Assembly: GCA_038046005.1 (NCBI GenBank)
Contig: JBBSXB010000003.1
Span: forward strand, 1-64,000
DNA from: Nanobdellota archaeon
GTDB taxonomy: Archaea > Nanobdellota > Nanobdellia > Pacearchaeales > GW2011-AR1
Direction of reading: 5' to 3'
Length of the DNA stretch: 64,000 nt
A model generated the notes under the pieces. It was not told the DNA's origin, did no database searches, and saw only the letters and a program-made list of their open reading frames with translations. Positions 1,171 to 19,552 of this stretch are shown piece after piece. Within the stretch, counting starts at the first letter, position 1. Every line of letters begins with the position of its first letter. The position numbers were made by a program, and so were the translations under genes.

Positions 1171-2916
1171 TTATGCACCATTTCCTATTTGCTGTCTCCA
1201 AAGTGCAGCATAAAGCCCCTTATTCTTCACGAGTTCATTGTGGTTTCCTTTCTCAATTATCCTTCCTTTTTCTAAAACAAAAATCTTATTAGAGTGAATA
1301 ATTGTTGAAAGCCTGTGTGCAACAAGAATTGTTATCATATTAGGTCTTTGCTTTGAAATTTCTTTTATTGTTTTTGTAATCTCTTTCTCAGTTAAAGAAT
1401 CAAGGCTGCTCGTGGCTTCATCAAAAATCAAAAGTTCTGGATTTCTTAAAAGTGCTCTTGCAATTGCAAGTCTCTGTCTCTCTCCGCCGGAAATTTTAAT
1501 TCCTCCCTCTCCTATTTTGGTGTCTATTCCTTTCTCTCCTCTTTCAACAATTGTCATTGCTGAAGCAAGCTTCAGAGCATCACGACAATCTTTATCAGAT
1601 GCTTCTGGATTTGCAAACAAAAGATTTTCTTTAATCGTTCCTGCAAAAAGTTGAGTTTCTTGTGAGACTAATCCAATTTTTTTTCTAAATTCTTCATAGT
1701 CAATTTTTTTCGAATCATTGCCATTAAACAAAAGATTTCCTTTCGTTGGAGAATAAAGTCCTAAAATAAGTTTAATGAGTGTAGTTTTTCCACTCCCAGA
1801 CATTCCAACAAAAGCGGCAACGTCTCCCTCATTTATTTCCACATCAATTCTTTCAATAGAAGGTTGTTTAGATGAATTATAAGAAAACTCAACATTTTTG
1901 AATTTAAGAGTTCTTAATTTTTCTATTTTTACTGGATTTTTTGGTTTTTCTTCTGGTTTAATATTAAGAATTTCGTTAAGCTTTTCATTGCTGGCCTTCG
2001 CCTCTTGATACTGTGAGACAACATTGCCTAATTCACCCAGAGGAAAAAATAGGAAAAATGAATAGAAGTACAAACTCAAAAACTCTCCAACGGTTATGTG
2101 CCTTTTAAAAAGGAGATAAAGCATAAGGAATAACAATAGAGCCCTTACTGCATTCACTAAAGTCCCTTGGACAAAACTTAGCATTCTGATAAGCTTGACT
2201 TTTTTAAGCTCCAGCTCAAGTATCTTTTCATTAGTCACGTTTAGTCTTTTGACCTCTTGAGTTTGAAGTCCCAAACTTTTTACCAATTCAACATTTCTTA
2301 TTGTTTCAGTAGTAGACCCTGAAAGCTCAGTTGATTCATTTACAATTTTTCTTTGTGCATCTTTAATCTTCTTGCTCATGATGTAGATTATAGTTCCCAT
2401 AAAAGGAATAGTGATTATAAAGGAAATCGCAATGCTCCAATGTACTACAAATGCATAAATCAAAACAAACAAGAAACCTATCAAGGAGACGAATATTATG
2501 TTTATAGAGCTGGAGATGATTGTTTGGGTATCAATTCTTGCTTTTTTCATTCTTTCAAGAACTTCTCCAGACCTTTGGTCTTCAAAAACACTGTATGGGA
2601 TGGAGAATGTATGCTCAACGCTTTTAGAGTACATCTCTGTCCCTATTTTTTGGGTTATTACACTTACATAATAATCTTGAATATTTTTAGCTATTCTAGA
2701 AATGAGGGAGACACCAATAAAACCGAGCAATAATATTAAGACTCCTTTTATGAAAACTTCAGAAGATAATTCATTGATTTTTAGAGCATAGTTATCAATT
2801 ATGAGCCTTATAATCTGCGGATCTAACAAAGAGAAAATTTGATTAACTGCTGCGAGAAACAAAGCTAAGAAAAGAATGTTTTTGTGTTTCTTTATATAAT
2901 ATTTTATGTTCAACAT
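1171..2916 (-). CDS. ABC exporter, fused permease and ATPase
   Basis: N-terminal TMD; Walker A GMSGSGKT; signature ISGGERQR; Walker B LIFDEAT; H-loop AHRLST. Confidence 0.95.
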   Translation of the reverse strand: MLNIKYYIKKHKNILFLALFLAAVNQIFSLLDPQIIRLIIDNYALKINELSSEVFIKGVLILLLGFIGVSLISRIAKNIQDYYVSVITQKIGTEMYSKSVEHTFSIPYSVFEDQRSGEVLERMKKARIDTQTIISSSINIIFVSLIGFLFVLIYAFVVHWSIAISFIITIPFMGTIIYIMSKKIKDAQRKIVNESTELSGSTTETIRNVELVKSLGLQTQEVKRLNVTNEKILELELKKVKLIRMLSFVQGTLVNAVRALLLFLMLYLLFKRHITVGEFLSLYFYSFFLFFPLGELGNVVSQYQEAKASNEKLNEILNIKPEEKPKNPVKIEKLRTLKFKNVEFSYNSSKQPSIERIDVEINEGDVAAFVGMSGSGKTTLIKLILGLYSPTKGNLLFNGNDSKKIDYEEFRKKIGLVSQETQLFAGTIKENLLFANPEASDKDCRDALKLASAMTIVERGEKGIDTKIGEGGIKISGGERQRLAIARALLRNPELLIFDEATSSLDSLTEKEITKTIKEISKQRPNMITILVAHRLSTIIHSNKIFVLEKGRIIEKGNHNELVKNKGLYAALWRQQIGNGA

Positions 2917-13761: not shown

Positions 13762-14433
13762 ATGTTAACATTAGGAATTGATGACGCAGGTCGGGGTCCA
13801 GTCATAGGTCCAATGGTTCTTGCGGGTTGTTTGATTAATGATGAGGCGACAAAAGAATTCAAGAAATTAGGCGTTAAAGACAGCAAGCAATTGACACAGA
13901 AAAGAAGAGAAATTTTAGTTCAAACAATAAAAGAAAAAGCAGAGACCTTTGAGGTCGTTGTCGTCAACCCTGAGCAGATTGACGGAACAGAGGAGACGCG
14001 GATAAAACTGAATGAATTGGAAGCAATTGCGTGTGCAGAGATAATCAACAGGATAAACAAGGGATTTTCAAAAATAAAAGTCATTGTTGATTGTCCTTCG
14101 ACCAACATAACGAAATGGACAGACTTTCTGAAATCTAAAATAAACAACCTTTCAAACTTGGAAATTTCTTGTGAGCACAAAGCAGACATAAACCATATTT
14201 CAGTTTCAGCAGCGTCTATAATAGCTAAGTCTTTAAGAGAAAAAGAAATGGATGATATAAAGAAAAAATATGGGGATAAAGTCGGTTCCGGATATTCTTC
14301 AGATCCTCTGACTAAAAAATTTATTGAAAATCATGGCCGAGAATTTAAAGATCATGGAATAATAAGGAAAAGCTGGGCGACATGGAAAAATTCAATGGCT
14401 TTTAAAGAACAAAAAAAGTTGAATGAGTTTTAA
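13762..14433 (+). CDS. rnhB: Ribonuclease HII
   Basis: GIDDAGRGPVIGP, GVKDSKQL, EHKAD, VSAASIIAK, GSGY.SDP. Confidence 0.95.
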   Translation: MLTLGIDDAGRGPVIGPMVLAGCLINDEATKEFKKLGVKDSKQLTQKRREILVQTIKEKAETFEVVVVNPEQIDGTEETRIKLNELEAIACAEIINRINKGFSKIKVIVDCPSTNITKWTDFLKSKINNLSNLEISCEHKADINHISVSAASIIAKSLREKEMDDIKKKYGDKVGSGYSSDPLTKKFIENHGREFKDHGIIRKSWATWKNSMAFKEQKKLNEF

Positions 14434-14503
14434 TTTGCTGGCTTTGCAAACTCAAAAAACCTTTAAAAATAATGGTTATTTCTTCTTATCATACTTATTT
14501 CAA

Positions 14504-17368
14504 ATGGCTTACATAAAAAGATTGGTGATGTATGGATTCAAGAGTTTTCCAAGAAAAACAGAAATCCCATTTACTCAGGGAATTAACGTAGTTCTTGGCC
14601 CAAACGGTTCGGGAAAATCAAACATTTCAGACGCTTTGTGTTTTGCCCTTGGAAGGCTGAGCATCAAGTCAATGAGGGCGGAAAAAGCACACAATCTGAT
14701 TTTTTTAGGGACTAAAGTGGCATCTCCGTCTAAAGAAGCAAGTGTAGAAGTGGTATTTGACAACTTAGATGAGACATTTTCTGTAAATTCCAAAGAAATT
14801 TCTATAAAAAGAATTGTAAGAAAAAATGGCCAAAGTATCTATAAAATTAACAACGAAACAAAAACAAGACAGGAAATACTGACTCTTTTGGCCCAAGCAG
14901 GAATTGACCCAAACGGTTTTAACATAATCTTGCAGGGGGAAATTCAAAATTTTGTAAATATGCACGCAGAAGAAAGGCGTAAGGTTATAGAGGAAGTTTC
15001 AGGAATTTCAGTTTACGAGCTGAGAAAAGAAAAATCACTGAAGGAAATGGAGAGAACTGAAGAGAAACTTAAAGAAGTTCAGGCAATTCTTAGAGAAAGA
15101 ACGGCTTATCTCGCCAATCTGGAAAAAGAAAGGCAGCAGGCTTTGAAATTTAAAAAACTTGAAGAAGACATAAAAAAATTCAAAGCAAGCATAATTAATT
15201 CTGATCTTATAAAAAACAATAAGGAAGTTGAAAGAATAATTTCAGAAATTGAAAAGAAAAATAAGGAGCTGGAAAATTTGAGAAAAATTATTTCAAGTTT
15301 AAGGGCTTCAATAGACAACTTTCATTCCAAAATAAATTCAATAAACTCCGAGATACAAAAATCTACAGGTCTTGAGCAGGAAAGATTAAATCAGGAGATT
15401 GCTAACATTCGGGCAGAAATTGCAGGCACTTCGGTCAGAATTGAAAACTACGAAAACAAAATCACTAATATCTCAAAACAAAAACAAGATCTTGAAGACA
15501 ATATAAAAGATAATGAATCCTCAATAAAAAACCTGAGAAAAGAATCAGGATTTGATATTATCAAAGGAAGCCAAAAGGCCTTAGAGGCAAAAAAGCGTGA
15601 GCTTGAAGTTCTTGAAGAGCAGAGAAAAAAATTCTACACTTACAAATCTGAATTTAAGTCTATAAAAGACAGAATTGACGACAAGAAAAATTTATTGCAG
15701 AGTTACTCAACAGAATCTGATTTCCTTCTGAATCAAATGAAATCTTTATCCCATGATCTTTTTGACAGAAATACTGACGACAGTTTGCTTTCATCTTTAA
15801 GAATATCATTTTCTGAGAAAAAAACAATTTTAGAAGATCTTAACAAAAAAGAAAAAGAGTTTGAAAAATCATCATCGACAAAAGAATATGAAATAGAAAA
15901 GCAGGGCTCTCTTGTTTCAAATATTGCAAAAATGGACATATGTCCAATTTGTAAAAGCAAAATAACTAAAGACCACATCCATAGTATAGACAAAGAAGTC
16001 AAGGAAAAAATAGCTCTTCTTAAAAAACAAATTGAAGAAGTTGATAAAGGACTTTCAGAAGTTTACAAGAAAAGAGATTTTGTTATAAAAGACTCAGAAC
16101 AAATATCCATAGAAATATCAAAAAGAGAAACTGATTTGGTTAAGCTTTCTACAATAAATGAAAAAAAGGACCAAATTAAAAACCTTAGGGAAAAAATAGA
16201 AAGTTTGAAGAGTGAGATTGCGGAGTTGGAAAAGATAAAAAAAAGATTAGAGGAGAACATAGAGCAAAATTTAAGCATTGAGCAAAAGTGTGAAACAGCC
16301 AGGGTTGAGTTCCAGGAAATATCAATAAGAAGCGACGAGACAGTTACTTCTGAAATTTCATATAAGCAGAAAGAGTTTGAAAGGGCTAAAATTTCTTTGA
16401 AACAATTGATAAGGGAAGAATCAGAAATCGGGGAAGAACTCGATGTTGTGAAGAAAGATTTGGAAGAAAATGAGGAGCTCCTGGCTAAAAAAAGAAAACA
16501 GGAAGAAGAACTGACAAAAAAATTCGAATCTTTGCTCTCTCAAAGAGATGGGCTGCAGAATAAAATTCGAGACACAGAAGTCGAAATCTCAAGAAAGCAG
16601 AATGATTTACATAACATTGAAATTTCTATAAACGATTTTAAAATAGAAAAAGCTAAATTTGATGCTATGGTTGAAAACCTCGAGACAGAAATGCTTGGAT
16701 TTCCTGATGTTGAAATAATCAAGACCCCCAAAGAGTCTCTCTTGTCAAAATTAAGCAGCGCGCAAGACACTTTGTCTAGTCTTGGAACAGTCAACTTGAG
16801 GTCACTCGAAGTTTATGATTCTGTAAAAAAAGAATATGATACTGTTCAGGAAAAAGTTGACATAATAACAAAAGAAAAAGAGGGCGTATTAAGAATAATC
16901 CATGAGATTGATGTTAAGAAGAAAAAAACTTTCTTGAAGACTATTGACTCATTGAACGAGATTGTTTCCAGAAATTTTTCTCAATTAAGTTCAAAAGGGG
17001 ATGTTTATCTTGAGCTTGAAAACAGGAAGGAGCCGTTTGAAGGTGGAGTCAACATAATTGTCAAAACAGGCCATGGAAAATATTTTGATGTAAAATCTCT
17101 CTCTGGCGGAGAGCAGACTCTTATAGCCTTGTCTTTGATATTTGCTATTCAGGAATACAAGCCTTATTCGTTCTACATTCTTGACGAGATTGATGCTGCC
17201 TTAGACAAGAGAAACTCAGAAAGGCTTGCTGGATTGTTGAACAAGTACATGCAGAAAGGCCAATATATAATTATAACGCACAATGACGAAGTCATATCAA
17301 AAGCCACAACACTCTATGGTGTCAGTATGCATGAGGGAGTTTCCAAGATAGTAAGTCTTAAGTTGTAG
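14504..17368 (+). CDS. smc: SMC-family chromosome ATPase with central CxxC hook
   Basis: GFKSF, GPNGSGKSN, LQG Q-loop, long coiled coils, LG.VNLR, LSGGE, ILDEIDAALD, ITH; CPIC at residue about 480 of 954. Confidence 0.9.
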   Translation: MAYIKRLVMYGFKSFPRKTEIPFTQGINVVLGPNGSGKSNISDALCFALGRLSIKSMRAEKAHNLIFLGTKVASPSKEASVEVVFDNLDETFSVNSKEISIKRIVRKNGQSIYKINNETKTRQEILTLLAQAGIDPNGFNIILQGEIQNFVNMHAEERRKVIEEVSGISVYELRKEKSLKEMERTEEKLKEVQAILRERTAYLANLEKERQQALKFKKLEEDIKKFKASIINSDLIKNNKEVERIISEIEKKNKELENLRKIISSLRASIDNFHSKINSINSEIQKSTGLEQERLNQEIANIRAEIAGTSVRIENYENKITNISKQKQDLEDNIKDNESSIKNLRKESGFDIIKGSQKALEAKKRELEVLEEQRKKFYTYKSEFKSIKDRIDDKKNLLQSYSTESDFLLNQMKSLSHDLFDRNTDDSLLSSLRISFSEKKTILEDLNKKEKEFEKSSSTKEYEIEKQGSLVSNIAKMDICPICKSKITKDHIHSIDKEVKEKIALLKKQIEEVDKGLSEVYKKRDFVIKDSEQISIEISKRETDLVKLSTINEKKDQIKNLREKIESLKSEIAELEKIKKRLEENIEQNLSIEQKCETARVEFQEISIRSDETVTSEISYKQKEFERAKISLKQLIREESEIGEELDVVKKDLEENEELLAKKRKQEEELTKKFESLLSQRDGLQNKIRDTEVEISRKQNDLHNIEISINDFKIEKAKFDAMVENLETEMLGFPDVEIIKTPKESLLSKLSSAQDTLSSLGTVNLRSLEVYDSVKKEYDTVQEKVDIITKEKEGVLRIIHEIDVKKKKTFLKTIDSLNEIVSRNFSQLSSKGDVYLELENRKEPFEGGVNIIVKTGHGKYFDVKSLSGGEQTLIALSLIFAIQEYKPYSFYILDEIDAALDKRNSERLAGLLNKYMQKGQYIIITHNDEVISKATTLYGVSMHEGVSKIVSLKL

Positions 17369-17397
17369 TTCATGACTTCGTAAACTTCGTTTCCGTC

Positions 17398-17441
17398 GTA
17401 TGCATGAAGGTGTAAGCAAAATTGTGAGTTTGAAACTATAG
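17398..17441 (+). repeat. Second, synonymously recoded copy of the smc 3' end (MHEGVSKIVSLKL*)
   Basis: Encodes the same 13 aa and stop as 17325-17368; 10 of 13 codons differ. Confidence 0.92.
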
Positions 17442-17858
17442 ATCACAACATAAAGGATATTTATCAAGTTCAGCACATTTTCCCTTTGCTAAATTTCCAA
17501 AAACTTGACTAACTAATTTTCTTGCTCTTGGAGAAGTTGTAATTTTATCTAATGCACCGTCAAGAGTTTTTTTGAGCTTTGGAATATCATGCGCATTTAT
17601 TACTCTTCCTCTAATCGCATTTATTGTAAAAAATTCCCAGTCTAATTCTTCTAAATCAAACGAGTGTCCTTTTCCCATGCTAAAATTGTAAAATCCTTCT
17701 AGATTATTCAAATATTTTTTGGCAGATTCTATAATATGGGCTTTTCTTATAATGTAGTCTGGTTTTGCATCAGCTAAATCTGCAATAGCAGCATAGAGAA
17801 AGCCAAAGTGATAAATTTCAGATCTTTTTTCTAAAGCCGATACAGTGCAAGCACCCAT
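17436..17858 (-). CDS. Hypothetical protein
   Basis: 140 aa ORF; its stop lies inside the repeat. Confidence 0.6.
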   Translation of the reverse strand: MGACTVSALEKRSEIYHFGFLYAAIADLADAKPDYIIRKAHIIESAKKYLNNLEGFYNFSMGKGHSFDLEELDWEFFTINAIRGRVINAHDIPKLKKTLDGALDKITTSPRARKLVSQVFGNLAKGKCAELDKYPLCCDL

Positions 17859-17917
17859 AAAAAGAATAGTTCATTTGATTTTATAAAAATATGTATCTTT
17901 TATTATAGAAACCTTTA

Positions 17918-17933
17918 TATATCAATTGATATA
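17918..17933. promoter_or_regulatory. Palindromic operator overlapping the TA promoter
   Basis: Perfect 16-bp palindrome TATATCAATTGATATA between the TATA box and the ATG at 17943. Confidence 0.6.
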
Positions 17934-17942
17934 CACTATATT

Positions 17943-18224
17943 ATGGAAACAGAAACATCGAATCCAATTGCGAGAAGCCCAACTTTAGATACTGTGATAA
18001 TGGTGGAGAAAGCAATAGAAAAGTATAGTGGAGATTTTAACAGGACTGAATTATGGAAAAAACTGCCTAAAAAAGTTATGTGGCAGACATACTTAGTTAT
18101 CTTAGATTATTTAGAAAACATAAACAAAATAGGAATTGCTCGAAACGGAATTTTAGTTTATATCTGGAGTCCGGAAGTTGCAAAAAAGTTTATGAACATG
18201 AAAGGTGTTGATTATAAAGATTAG
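17943..18224 (+). CDS. Small winged-helix protein, putative antitoxin
   Basis: PTLDTV.MVE...TELWKKLPKKVMWQT...ILDYLE; sits upstream of a RelE-like gene. Confidence 0.65.
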   Translation: METETSNPIARSPTLDTVIMVEKAIEKYSGDFNRTELWKKLPKKVMWQTYLVILDYLENINKIGIARNGILVYIWSPEVAKKFMNMKGVDYKD

Positions 18225-18226
18225 AA

Positions 18227-18556
18227 ATGGACAAAAAAGTAATTGTTAAATTCAAAAACCCTTTGTTAAAAAAGAATTTCGATGAGCTTTCTGAAGATGA
18301 TCCTTTAAAAAAGAGGATAAGGAGAACAATTGAGGGAATTAAACAAAATCCTTTAAGTTATGGCCAGCCAATAAATAAGAGCAAAATTCCTAAAATTTAC
18401 TTTAACGAAGGTTTTACAAATGCTTTTTGGGTTGATTTAAGCAAGTCTTGGAGGTTAATTTATACTCTCACTTCTACTAGCGAAGTTGAGATATTAGCAA
18501 TTATTTTAGAATGGTTTACAAGTCACAAAGATTATGAAAAAAGATTTAACTACTAA
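18227..18556 (+). CDS. RelE/ParE-superfamily toxin-like protein
   Basis: Basic 109 aa; NP..G..I...IP..Y...W..DL...WRLIYT...H.DYE.RF.Y. Confidence 0.75.
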   Translation: MDKKVIVKFKNPLLKKNFDELSEDDPLKKRIRRTIEGIKQNPLSYGQPINKSKIPKIYFNEGFTNAFWVDLSKSWRLIYTLTSTSEVEILAIILEWFTSHKDYEKRFNY

Positions 18557-18557
18557 A

Positions 18558-18848
18558 ATGAAAATAATAACCAAATATTATGATAAGGGTGGAAAACTAA
18601 AAATATTAAAAAATATTGGAAGCAATAATGTTAACTCTACTATAAGATTTAAGATTTTAAAAAATAAAAGAGAGTTTCCATGTTGTGATTTTCAGGGAAA
18701 ATGCACAAATAAAGCATGTGCAGAGGTTTATCCCAGTCTTATGAAAAACAGTAATAAAGGTTGGAGTTATCTTTGTAAGAAACATTATTACCAAGAACAA
18801 AAAAGATTGAAATGGAAACTCCCTTCATGTTTAAATGTTGAGTGGTGA
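18558..18848 (+). CDS. Small Cys-rich hypothetical protein
   Basis: CCD...C...AC.EVY...WSYLCKKH, possibly Zn-binding. Confidence 0.55.
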   Translation: MKIITKYYDKGGKLKILKNIGSNNVNSTIRFKILKNKREFPCCDFQGKCTNKACAEVYPSLMKNSNKGWSYLCKKHYYQEQKRLKWKLPSCLNVEW

Positions 18849-18928
18849 TTGAAATTGGCCATAGAAAAAATATCTATAAATGAGTTTGAAACTATAGCAT
18901 CTAATCTCCACTAATTATTTATATTCGG

Positions 18929-19552
18929 ATGTCTTCTTTTTACATGGAAAAAACTGAGCTTTTGGCTTCCTTGAAGAAACAAGGTTTTTCTGAGAAAATA
19001 ATAAATGCTTTTGCTGCAGTTGATAGAAAGAACTTTATTCCTCCTCTGATTAAATTCTTGGCTTATGATGACAACGCTTTGCCTATTGGCCACGGCCAGA
19101 CAATTTCACAGCCGCATACAATTGCAGTGATGCTGGATTTGTTGCATCTAAAAAAAGACCAAAAAGTTTTGGAAGTTGGATGCGGAAGCGGTTATGTTCT
19201 GGCTTTAATGTCTGAAATAGTTAGCGAGAACGGAAAAGTCTATGGTTTGGAGATAATACGGGATTTGGTAGAGCGGTCAAAAAAACCTTTGTATAAATAT
19301 CAGAATGTTCAGGCTCTTTACGGAGATGGCCGATTTGGCATGCACGAAAAAGCCCCATTTGACAGGATTTTGATAAGCGCGGCTCTCACCACTATTCCGG
19401 AATATTTGGTGAACCAGCTCAATAATGATGGAATCATTGTTGCTCCTATTGGTAATGAGAGCATGCAGTCTTTAGTTGCCTACAAAAAATCAGAAGATGG
19501 TTTATCCATCATAGAACAAGTTCCGGGCTTTGCCTTTGTGCATTTTGTTTAA
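18929..19552 (+). CDS. pcm: Protein-L-isoaspartate O-methyltransferase
   Basis: LPIGHGQTISQP, VLEVGCGSGY, APFDRIL, QL...G..V.PIG, FV. Confidence 0.95.
   Translation: MSSFYMEKTELLASLKKQGFSEKIINAFAAVDRKNFIPPLIKFLAYDDNALPIGHGQTISQPHTIAVMLDLLHLKKDQKVLEVGCGSGYVLALMSEIVSENGKVYGLEIIRDLVERSKKPLYKYQNVQALYGDGRFGMHEKAPFDRILISAALTTIPEYLVNQLNNDGIIVAPIGNESMQSLVAYKKSEDGLSIIEQVPGFAFVHFV

Follow-up and report, generated by a model that had tools for sequence, protein, structure and literature searches.

The 3′ end of smc was analyzed in a 64,000-nt stretch of DNA (the window; positions 1 to 64,000 of contig JBBSXB010000003.1, GenBank assembly GCA_038046005.1) from a groundwater archaeon of the Nanobdellota, whose genome amounts to 875 kb in 15 contigs and is designated G000 here. 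The last 13 codons of the gene are present twice, and behind the second copy lies a small islet of genes enclosed by an exact repeat of the tail end. With moderate confidence, the end of smc is interpreted as a recurrent insertion slot that has no recombinase gene nearby and that bears three layers of insertion in the window. The genomes and loci used for comparison carry G and L numbers, respectively; G001 belongs to the same genus as G000, and G079 belongs to another genus.

A recoded duplicate of the smc tail

The following features make up the smc end in the window.

14423..17368, + strand: smc, an open reading frame (ORF) with a Pfam SMC_N match (1.7e-61); the true start may lie a few codons further in
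17327..17368, + strand: copy A, the working smc tail (last 13 codons plus stop)
17369..17399, no strand: spacer of 31 nt, a variant of a ~30-nt mini-insert found at the same codon in relatives
17400..17441, + strand: copy B, the spare, displaced tail, in the +1 frame and with a stop after the same 13 residues
17425..17441, + strand: left copy of an exact 17-nt direct repeat, which is the end of copy B
18881..18897, + strand: right copy (repeat C) of the exact 17-nt repeat, 1,456 nt downstream of the left copy

A reading of the window made from its letters alone (the sequence-only reading) had described a synonymously recoded twin of the smc 3′ end, with 10 of 13 codons differing and only the first 10 nt matching, and a recount agreed. 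Copies A and B differ at 13 nt, by which 10 codons are changed, all of them synonymously and none nonsynonymously. They match without interruption only over their first 10 nt, a stretch that begins two bases ahead of the Met codon. This Met codon, located 13 codons before the stop, forms a six-base palindrome together with the next codon, for His. No start codon was found for copy B except its own ATG, and no ribosome-binding motif was noticed ahead of it. The exact recurrence of 17 nt at 18881-18897 was also confirmed; when the window was shuffled and up to three mismatches were allowed, a mean of 0.45 matches was obtained. Four ORFs lie between the 17-nt repeats and are followed by pcm. The smc ortholog in G001 shares 94% identity over the last 322 amino acids (aa).

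A strain-chimeric assembly had been named as the circumstance in which the twin would be spurious, but the contig-level data argue against it, and an artifact that joined two strains is extremely improbable. One Logan contig of 8,590 nt (depth, 72.5) spans positions 16900 to 19100 with no differences, although the run may itself be the source of the window. The independent occurrence of the same twin with the same spacer in two separately assembled genomes, G001 and G079, is stronger evidence than this contig, and the same architecture was found at 13 metagenomic loci. In favor of an artifact, contigs from run X5 break within the spacer (17375-17399), with an overlap of 25 nt. In run X8, one contig has a different sequence before position 17394; relatives with another spacer at the same site probably share the sample. 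No joint that would correspond to a collapsed twin or to an islet-free form was listed for the contigs, which is uninformative either way because contigs drop rare variants.

Twins were found repeatedly in relatives. The metagenomic set comprised 80 smc loci sharing 76 to 85% identity over the last 200 residues, and the gene end was recognized in 79. A second tail copy was present 28 to 172 nt behind the stop in 13 of the 79, two of which were identical in sequence, and one of these 13 loci also held a third copy. A reference set of 18 further smc loci yielded one twin (G017), and those of G079 and G123 came up later; with G000 and G001, five reference smc loci carry a twin. These counts are lower bounds, because many loci hold little DNA 3′ of the stop. 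Copy B started at the same Met codon in 16 of 16 loci, and the bases preceding it were unrelated to smc. In G001, copy A is followed by a 30-nt spacer, copy B, and, 33 nt later, pcm, so that G001 presents an islet-free site. The twin is recurrent and independent of the islet, not a scar of it, and it predates the divergence of G000 from G001. The sequence-only reading had viewed the twin as a replacement terminus brought in by an integrating element. This explanation fails for copies A and B, which instead flank a noncoding insert of ~30 nt that was found at this codon in many relatives.

At least three spacer families were distinguished: a short one of 28 to 34 nt (63 nt at one locus), one of ~47 to 103 nt, and one of 91 to 172 nt. 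Copies A and B are nearly identical in the family with the longest spacers and synonymously scrambled in the short-spacer family. The tail start reappears as its reverse complement at the opening of each spacer, a few bases past the stop, and this complementarity covaries in G017, where the tail start has a different spelling. The window spacer has both ends in common with the spacers of L024, L026, and L058; its center differs. Among 401 genomes of the family, the window variant was confined to three (G000, G001, and G079), apart from an unchecked match with three mismatches in G209, and a pattern search of the genome_contigs collection with the spacer gave no record other than that of G001. 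Depending on spacer length, the frame from A to B is 0, +1, or +2 among the genomes. Read-through, frameshifting, or hopping into copy B was rejected on account of this variable offset and of the two stops that lie between the copies in G001. A diversity-generating retroelement was rejected by eye, as the differences between A and B are not adenine specific.

Three of the short smc spacers contain a 17-nt core that is also dispersed elsewhere. In a scan of 61 relatives, with the reversed pattern as the control, the core was detected in 6, including ~9 copies in G013 (4 forward and 5 reverse), and the control gave 0. It was seen at gene ends, at gene starts, in ribosome-binding regions between overlapping genes, and in a tRNA trailer. 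Mostly it sits between two diverged copies of the local boundary, and some copies lie in frame inside ORFs. In-frame copies were noted on contig C8 of G000 (164296-164312) and at L105, L114, and L115 in G013, where they add roughly six to nine hydrophilic residues. At L112 (G001 contig C11, ~1400-1560), the mini-repeat lies just behind a tRNA gene, between two copies of the tRNA 3′ end and trailer.

Short duplicates of C-terminal ends near other genes, which the sequence-only reading had envisaged, were found for a few genes in G000 (contigs C6, C9, and C3). On contig C6, a 141-aa gene (gene end, 27962) is followed by a spacer of 27 to 33 nt and a synonymously recoded copy of its last 13 to 14 codons; the spacer resembles the dispersed core, and the ortholog in G001 has a single tail. 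The ortholog at L123 (G021 contig C26, ~1660-1900, reverse strand) has three nucleotide-identical tail copies in tandem with a period of 93 nt, each followed by a spacer that begins with the local tail start in reverse-complemented form. On contig C9 (minus strand; gene end, 31301; 439 aa) and contig C3 (84486; 913 aa), the recoded copy of the last codons lies 1,057 nt downstream.

The smc-pcm interval and its cargo

Behind copy B, the interval up to pcm holds the following features.

17436..17858, − strand: ORF1, 140 aa; no family found; missing from the ORF2-ORF4 modules of relatives
17909..17934, + strand: promoter-like stretch ahead of ORF2, near-identical ahead of the ORF2 homologs in L134 (G166) and L133 (G041)
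17943..18224, + strand: ORF2, 93 aa; no Pfam family; widespread in Pacearchaeota/Nanoarchaeota
18227..18556, + strand: ORF3, 109 aa; toxin-like, RelE/YoeB/ParE superfamily
18534..18848, + strand: ORF4, 104 aa; cysteine-rich, conserved family often beside pcm or smc; no named family
18846..18883, + strand: toxin-gene stub, comprising the final 12 codons and the stop of a ParE/RelE-type toxin gene
18929..19552, + strand: pcm (protein-L-isoaspartate O-methyltransferase; PCMT, 2.5e-59); likely start, ATG at 18944

Relatives were found to use this interval for different cargo. Cassettes located directly behind the smc tail in metagenomic relatives encode a ParE pair, a PemK/MazF pair, and a PBECR2 and DUF2283 pair, and on the far side of three metagenomic cassettes there are exact repeats of the last 14, 14, and 21 nt of the tail. 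L094 (3674-4300) has three tail copies, namely A, B after 29 nt, and a full-length third one behind a PBECR2 and DUF2283 pair. In G079, the order is smc, A, spacer, B, a fragment resembling HicB, ORF4, and pcm; in G123, it is smc, A, spacer, B, HicB, HicA, pcm, and ORF4; and in G011, ORF4 alone stands between smc and pcm. The ORF2-ORF4 module also occurs elsewhere: in G041 it follows a tRNA gene, and in G166 it is flanked by an unrelated gene and pcm. At the latter locus (L134, 838-880), a 21-nt remnant of the smc tail with its stop precedes the module, and smc is not a neighbor there.

The stub between ORF4 and repeat C (18846-18883; 38 bases, running into the repeat) aligns with the end of a ParE_toxin gene in L044 (Pfam, 8e-06), which occupies the same place before a tail repeat. 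This correspondence points to an older ParE cassette that would have been bracketed by the 17-nt repeat and mostly overwritten by the present genes. An imperfect inverted repeat of 22 nt (82% complementary) was noted between the ORF1 start region (17820-17841) and the stub (18854-18875) and may be due to chance. The smc-pcm interval is a slot that was used several times, at least three in the lineage of the window, because the mini-insert twin, the older ParE cassette, and the present genes are layered there.

These comparisons bear on the sequence-only reading, which had proposed a hotspot used at least twice, with no integrase in the window, and had expected relatives to show an empty site or different cargo at the same junction. 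G001 has the twin without the islet, and relatives do carry other cargo there. The repeated use and the lack of a recombinase gene in the window stand; the A/B twin drops out of the proposal, as it was not produced by cargo integration with a carried replacement terminus.

The islet had been described as a RelE-like toxin-antitoxin pair with two orphan genes. For ORF3, the superfamily is upheld by distant homologs: among its 49 homologs, distant ones carry PF05016 or PF06769 or were named Txe/YoeB or RelE by their source, which makes ORF3 a toxin-like, probable member of the RelE/YoeB/ParE superfamily. Its own match to ParE_toxin (14.6 bits; E value, 0.051) is below the Pfam cutoff of 23 bits. 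ORF2 ends 2 nt before the start of ORF3 and is a possible antitoxin, a role that is unverified. It has 1,523 homolog clusters, those listed being named hypothetical or unnamed, versus the 49 homologs of ORF3. ORF4 was found in 22 of 151 genomes of the family. Searches of PADLOC and NCBIfam with the four islet ORFs gave no match.

The exact 17-nt repeat that brackets the islet could also be the scar of a site-specific integration. In that case, small circles would be inserted at the palindrome and the 17-nt end by a tyrosine or serine recombinase whose gene lies elsewhere, and the twin and repeat C would represent attL/attR pairs. This explanation is possible but unlikely. It would fit the fixed start codon of copy B at all loci compared, as well as the imperfect inverted repeat that the 3′ end of the spacer and the start of copy B form around the palindrome. 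As the sequence-only reading had suspected, recombinases are encoded elsewhere in G000, with two PF00589 proteins (Phage_integrase, tyrosine; contigs C4 and C11) and one PF00239 protein (Resolvase, serine; contig C1). The position of the ORF2-ORF4 module behind a tRNA gene in G041 also speaks for integration, tRNA genes being classic integration sites. Against it, no recombinase gene was present in or beside any cassette seen, and the Pfam search of G000 found no recombinase domain on the contig of the window or in the four islet ORFs. The Y1 transposase (PF01797) and the TnpB zinc ribbon (PF07282) were not found in G000. Furthermore, the tail repeats vary in length and position (14, 14, 17, 21, and ~42 nt), the mini-insert core is also present at unrelated gene boundaries that are each duplicated locally, and the 73-nt unit formed by copy A and the spacer is very short for excision as a circle. 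Homology or microhomology is favored over one fixed enzyme because the tail repeats differ in length.

With the end of smc read as a recurrent slot, the following history is proposed. In the first layer, a mini-insert of ~30 nt would have entered on the Met codon 13 codons before the smc stop, and the stretch from this codon to the stop would have been duplicated. As a result, smc would have kept a full tail in copy A, with the spare copy B lying behind the insert, and this event would have come before the two species of the genus diverged. In the second layer, a ParE-type toxin-antitoxin cassette may have been placed behind copy B, with the final 17 nt of the tail on either side of it. In the third, most of this cassette would have been replaced by ORF1 and the movable ORF2-ORF4 module, with the toxin stub and repeat C remaining. 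Cassettes would be gained and lost in exchanges that use the conserved tail as their anchor and are carried out by host homologous recombination or by a recombinase acting in trans. The tail would serve as a homology or attachment handle, so that a cassette with a tail fragment could enter the smc tail of any relative.

Conservation of the spare tail

The smc genes of G000 and G001 have diverged considerably at silent positions. Over the 809 codons before the tail, 6.9, 4.3, and 41.5% of first, second, and third positions differ, respectively, as do 49% of four-fold sites. Between the same genomes, copy A has seven differences and copy B has eight, all of them third-position and synonymous (one of those in copy B affects the stop codon); by computation, a random point change in copy B would be synonymous in ~20% of cases. 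The spacer shows no substitution in 30 aligned nt and a length difference of 1 nt. G000 and G079 have smc proteins that are 73% identical, third positions that differ by 54%, and spacers that differ at 2 of 31 nt. Among these three genomes, the divergence of each copy resembles that of the gene body. In G079, A and B share their first 26 bases without a difference, which suggests gene conversion or a fresh duplication.

The codons of A and B were compared at 16 loci from stored coordinates, and 91 synonymous and 16 nonsynonymous codon differences were counted. The two copies encode an identical peptide within each of G000, G001, G079, L021, L090, and L092, and the peptide differs between genera. 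Elsewhere in the two genomes of the genus, the orthologous mini-repeats L107 (G000 contig C2:9571) and L108 (G001 contig C3:85531), located between two genes, differ at ~3 of 60 bases. As this is far below the divergence of synonymous sites, further copies of the mini-repeat also appear to be unusually conserved.

Several of these results weigh against the recurrent-slot reading. A simple decaying scar does not fit the spacer and copy B, because the former has no substitution and the changes in the latter are all synonymous despite 49% divergence at four-fold sites. The 91:16 excess of synonymous differences points to constraint, which the slot reading would explain only through inference. ORF4 lies beside pcm in several genera, so the islet may in part be ancient, and its absence from G001 may reflect a loss, perhaps between the 17-nt repeats, instead of an original state. 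At the contig level, no excised, circular, or empty form was seen for the locus in G000. Finally, the spacer in the window is without the 17-nt core, and what it has in common with the core-bearing spacers is position, length, and both ends only. For the conservation of copy B, three explanations are offered, each with low confidence and in descending order: cassette exchanges may repeatedly overwrite copy B with working tails; selection may act on it, since a deletion between A and B would make copy B part of the gene; or copy B may really be used after removal of the 73-nt unit.

The last of these was developed further as an alternative to the slot reading. The 73-nt unit would be removed either from some of the transcripts, as an intron resembling the bulge-helix-bulge (BHB) type and cut by the host tRNA-splicing endonuclease, or from some of the genomes by precise excision, so that SMC would carry tail A in some cases and tail B in others, with both under selection at the protein level. 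This is quite unlikely, and so, to the same degree, is the corollary that the unit represents a new kind of protein-free archaeal mini-element, an "insert with its own rescue exon," moved and removed by host enzymes in a cell that uses both tails. If true, such removal would account for the conservation of the 31-nt spacer and the synonymous-only change of the seemingly silent 13-codon copy across species and genera. Copy B and the spacer are indeed conserved like coding and functional sequence, and the agreement of the A and B peptides within the six loci named above, with differences between genera, is consistent with use of both. The palindrome provides a self-complementary 4-bp helix at matching places in A and B, RNAalifold pairs the start of A with that of B, and the spacer ends are complementary to the tail start, with covariation in L021.

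Other results speak against removal of the unit. In a test of the BHB motif, a central helix was possible through the palindrome, but the flanking helices were weak and not conserved, being lost in G001, and the folds were not unusually stable. Single-sequence folds of five stretches from A through B gave z scores of −0.08, −1.80, +0.35, −1.28, and −0.41 relative to shuffles, and nine twin loci had no match in Rfam at gathering thresholds. For seven short-spacer loci, RNAalifold returned palindrome pairing and nothing else; for four long-spacer loci, it returned weak hairpins that lacked any double-sided compensatory change. A stable structured RNA in this stretch is therefore unsupported, because the folds were no more stable than shuffles and the alignments gave only the palindrome or weak hairpins. 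The shifting frame between A and B among genomes also counts against removal. In the twin on contig C6, the start is without a self-complementary stretch, and thus removal at the RNA or DNA level cannot be the general mechanism.

Relation to known elements and significance

The closest documented parallel to the smc twin is that of the mobile endonuclease ORFs (mORFs) of fungal mitochondria. These mORFs make "gene hybrids" with a duplicated carboxy terminus in atp6, atp9, cox2, and nad3 of Glomus and in atp6 of Allomyces, and the inserted and native carboxy termini differ mainly at synonymous sites (PMC3630166). As at smc, the 3′ end of a gene is present twice, with one copy used and the other displaced downstream, the differences are mostly synonymous, and the host gene stays intact. 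In the mORF hybrids, the two copies are separated by an endonuclease gene of ~1 kb and the foreign copy is the upstream one; the smc copies are separated by 31 nt that hold no ORF. Unlike in those hybrids, the spare smc copy has been intact since before the species split, and cassettes stand behind the second copy rather than between the two.

A footprint of this type was considered for smc itself. A cassette with a recoded rescue tail would have entered the smc tail and later lost its endonuclease, so that copy A would be foreign and copy B native. Recoded tail duplicates produced by mobile endonuclease ORFs are documented in fungal mitochondria (PMC3630166), a recoded twin at a distance of 1,057 nt follows the 439-aa gene on contig C9, and in the short-spacer family the A copies avoid the Ser-Leu-Lys codon spelling that is common to most single tails and to the B copies. 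However, the spacers of 28 to 172 nt at the 16 loci contain no endonuclease ORF or remnant and are conserved or repeated elements rather than decayed ORFs. On contig C6, moreover, the upstream copy is closer to the single tail of the relative G001 (6 versus 10 differences, counted by eye), the opposite of the mORF pattern. An endonuclease footprint is thus considered very unlikely.

Insertion into the 3′ end of a coding sequence also recalls prophage e14 (and phage 21) in icd of E. coli, where the replacement terminus is synonymously different and the original end is displaced. Prophage e14 carries its own integrase and measures ~15 kb. The smc locus resembles it in the insertion into a coding 3′ end, the synonymously differing terminus, and the displaced original end; it differs in the absence of an adjacent recombinase, a cargo of 0.3 to 1.5 kb, and repeats of varying length. 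Of the traits of integrative elements, smc has identical border repeats (17 nt) and an empty site in G001, and an adjacent recombinase is absent.

Mycobacterial interspersed repetitive units (MIRUs) are described as inserting at start codons, where they do little harm, and as carrying a coupled mini-ORF (PMC12548453). They are like the mini-insert in being short dispersed repeats placed exactly on gene boundaries, with flanking genes that are kept expressed, and in forming tandem copies (three units in G021). A MIRU-like repeat is tolerated because the flanking genes stay expressed. The smc insert differs in lying on an internal Met codon near the stop and in having a 42-nt target duplicate, a feature that goes unmentioned in the passage on MIRUs cited here (PMC12548453). 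Nor is a coupled mini-ORF of the MIRU kind evident at smc, where the only ORF is copy B, whose end lies 33 nt ahead of pcm in G001 and is followed by unrelated genes in G000 and in G079. MIRUs are the closest described counterpart of the dispersed mini-repeat.

Palindromic elements of Rickettsia lie in frame inside ORFs, and chromosomal integrons pile up small toxin-antitoxin cassettes at one site. The 17-nt core shares the former property, being found in frame inside ORFs as well, and the smc slot shares the latter, with small toxin-antitoxin cassettes accumulating at one place. In contrast to integrons, no integron integrase or attC-like site was found beside the slot, and the cassettes are bordered by copies of the tail of the host gene itself. 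A literature search, with subscription journals outside its scope, turned up no paper describing repeats of this type or duplicated gene tails in DPANN archaea.

The genomes of DPANN archaea are very small and densely packed, and the routes by which these organisms gain and lose genes are little known. The end of an essential, conserved gene would here act as a fixed address at which small toxin-antitoxin cassettes are swapped with no recombinase gene beside it, and a miniature repeat that inserts on gene boundaries would leave those boundaries duplicated. If the tail copies serve as homology handles, this would be a simple, integrase-free route of gene flow, easily overlooked, that leaves "fossil" gene ends as its record. 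The codon-level conservation of the supposedly silent copy may, in turn, point to removal of the insert at the RNA or DNA level.

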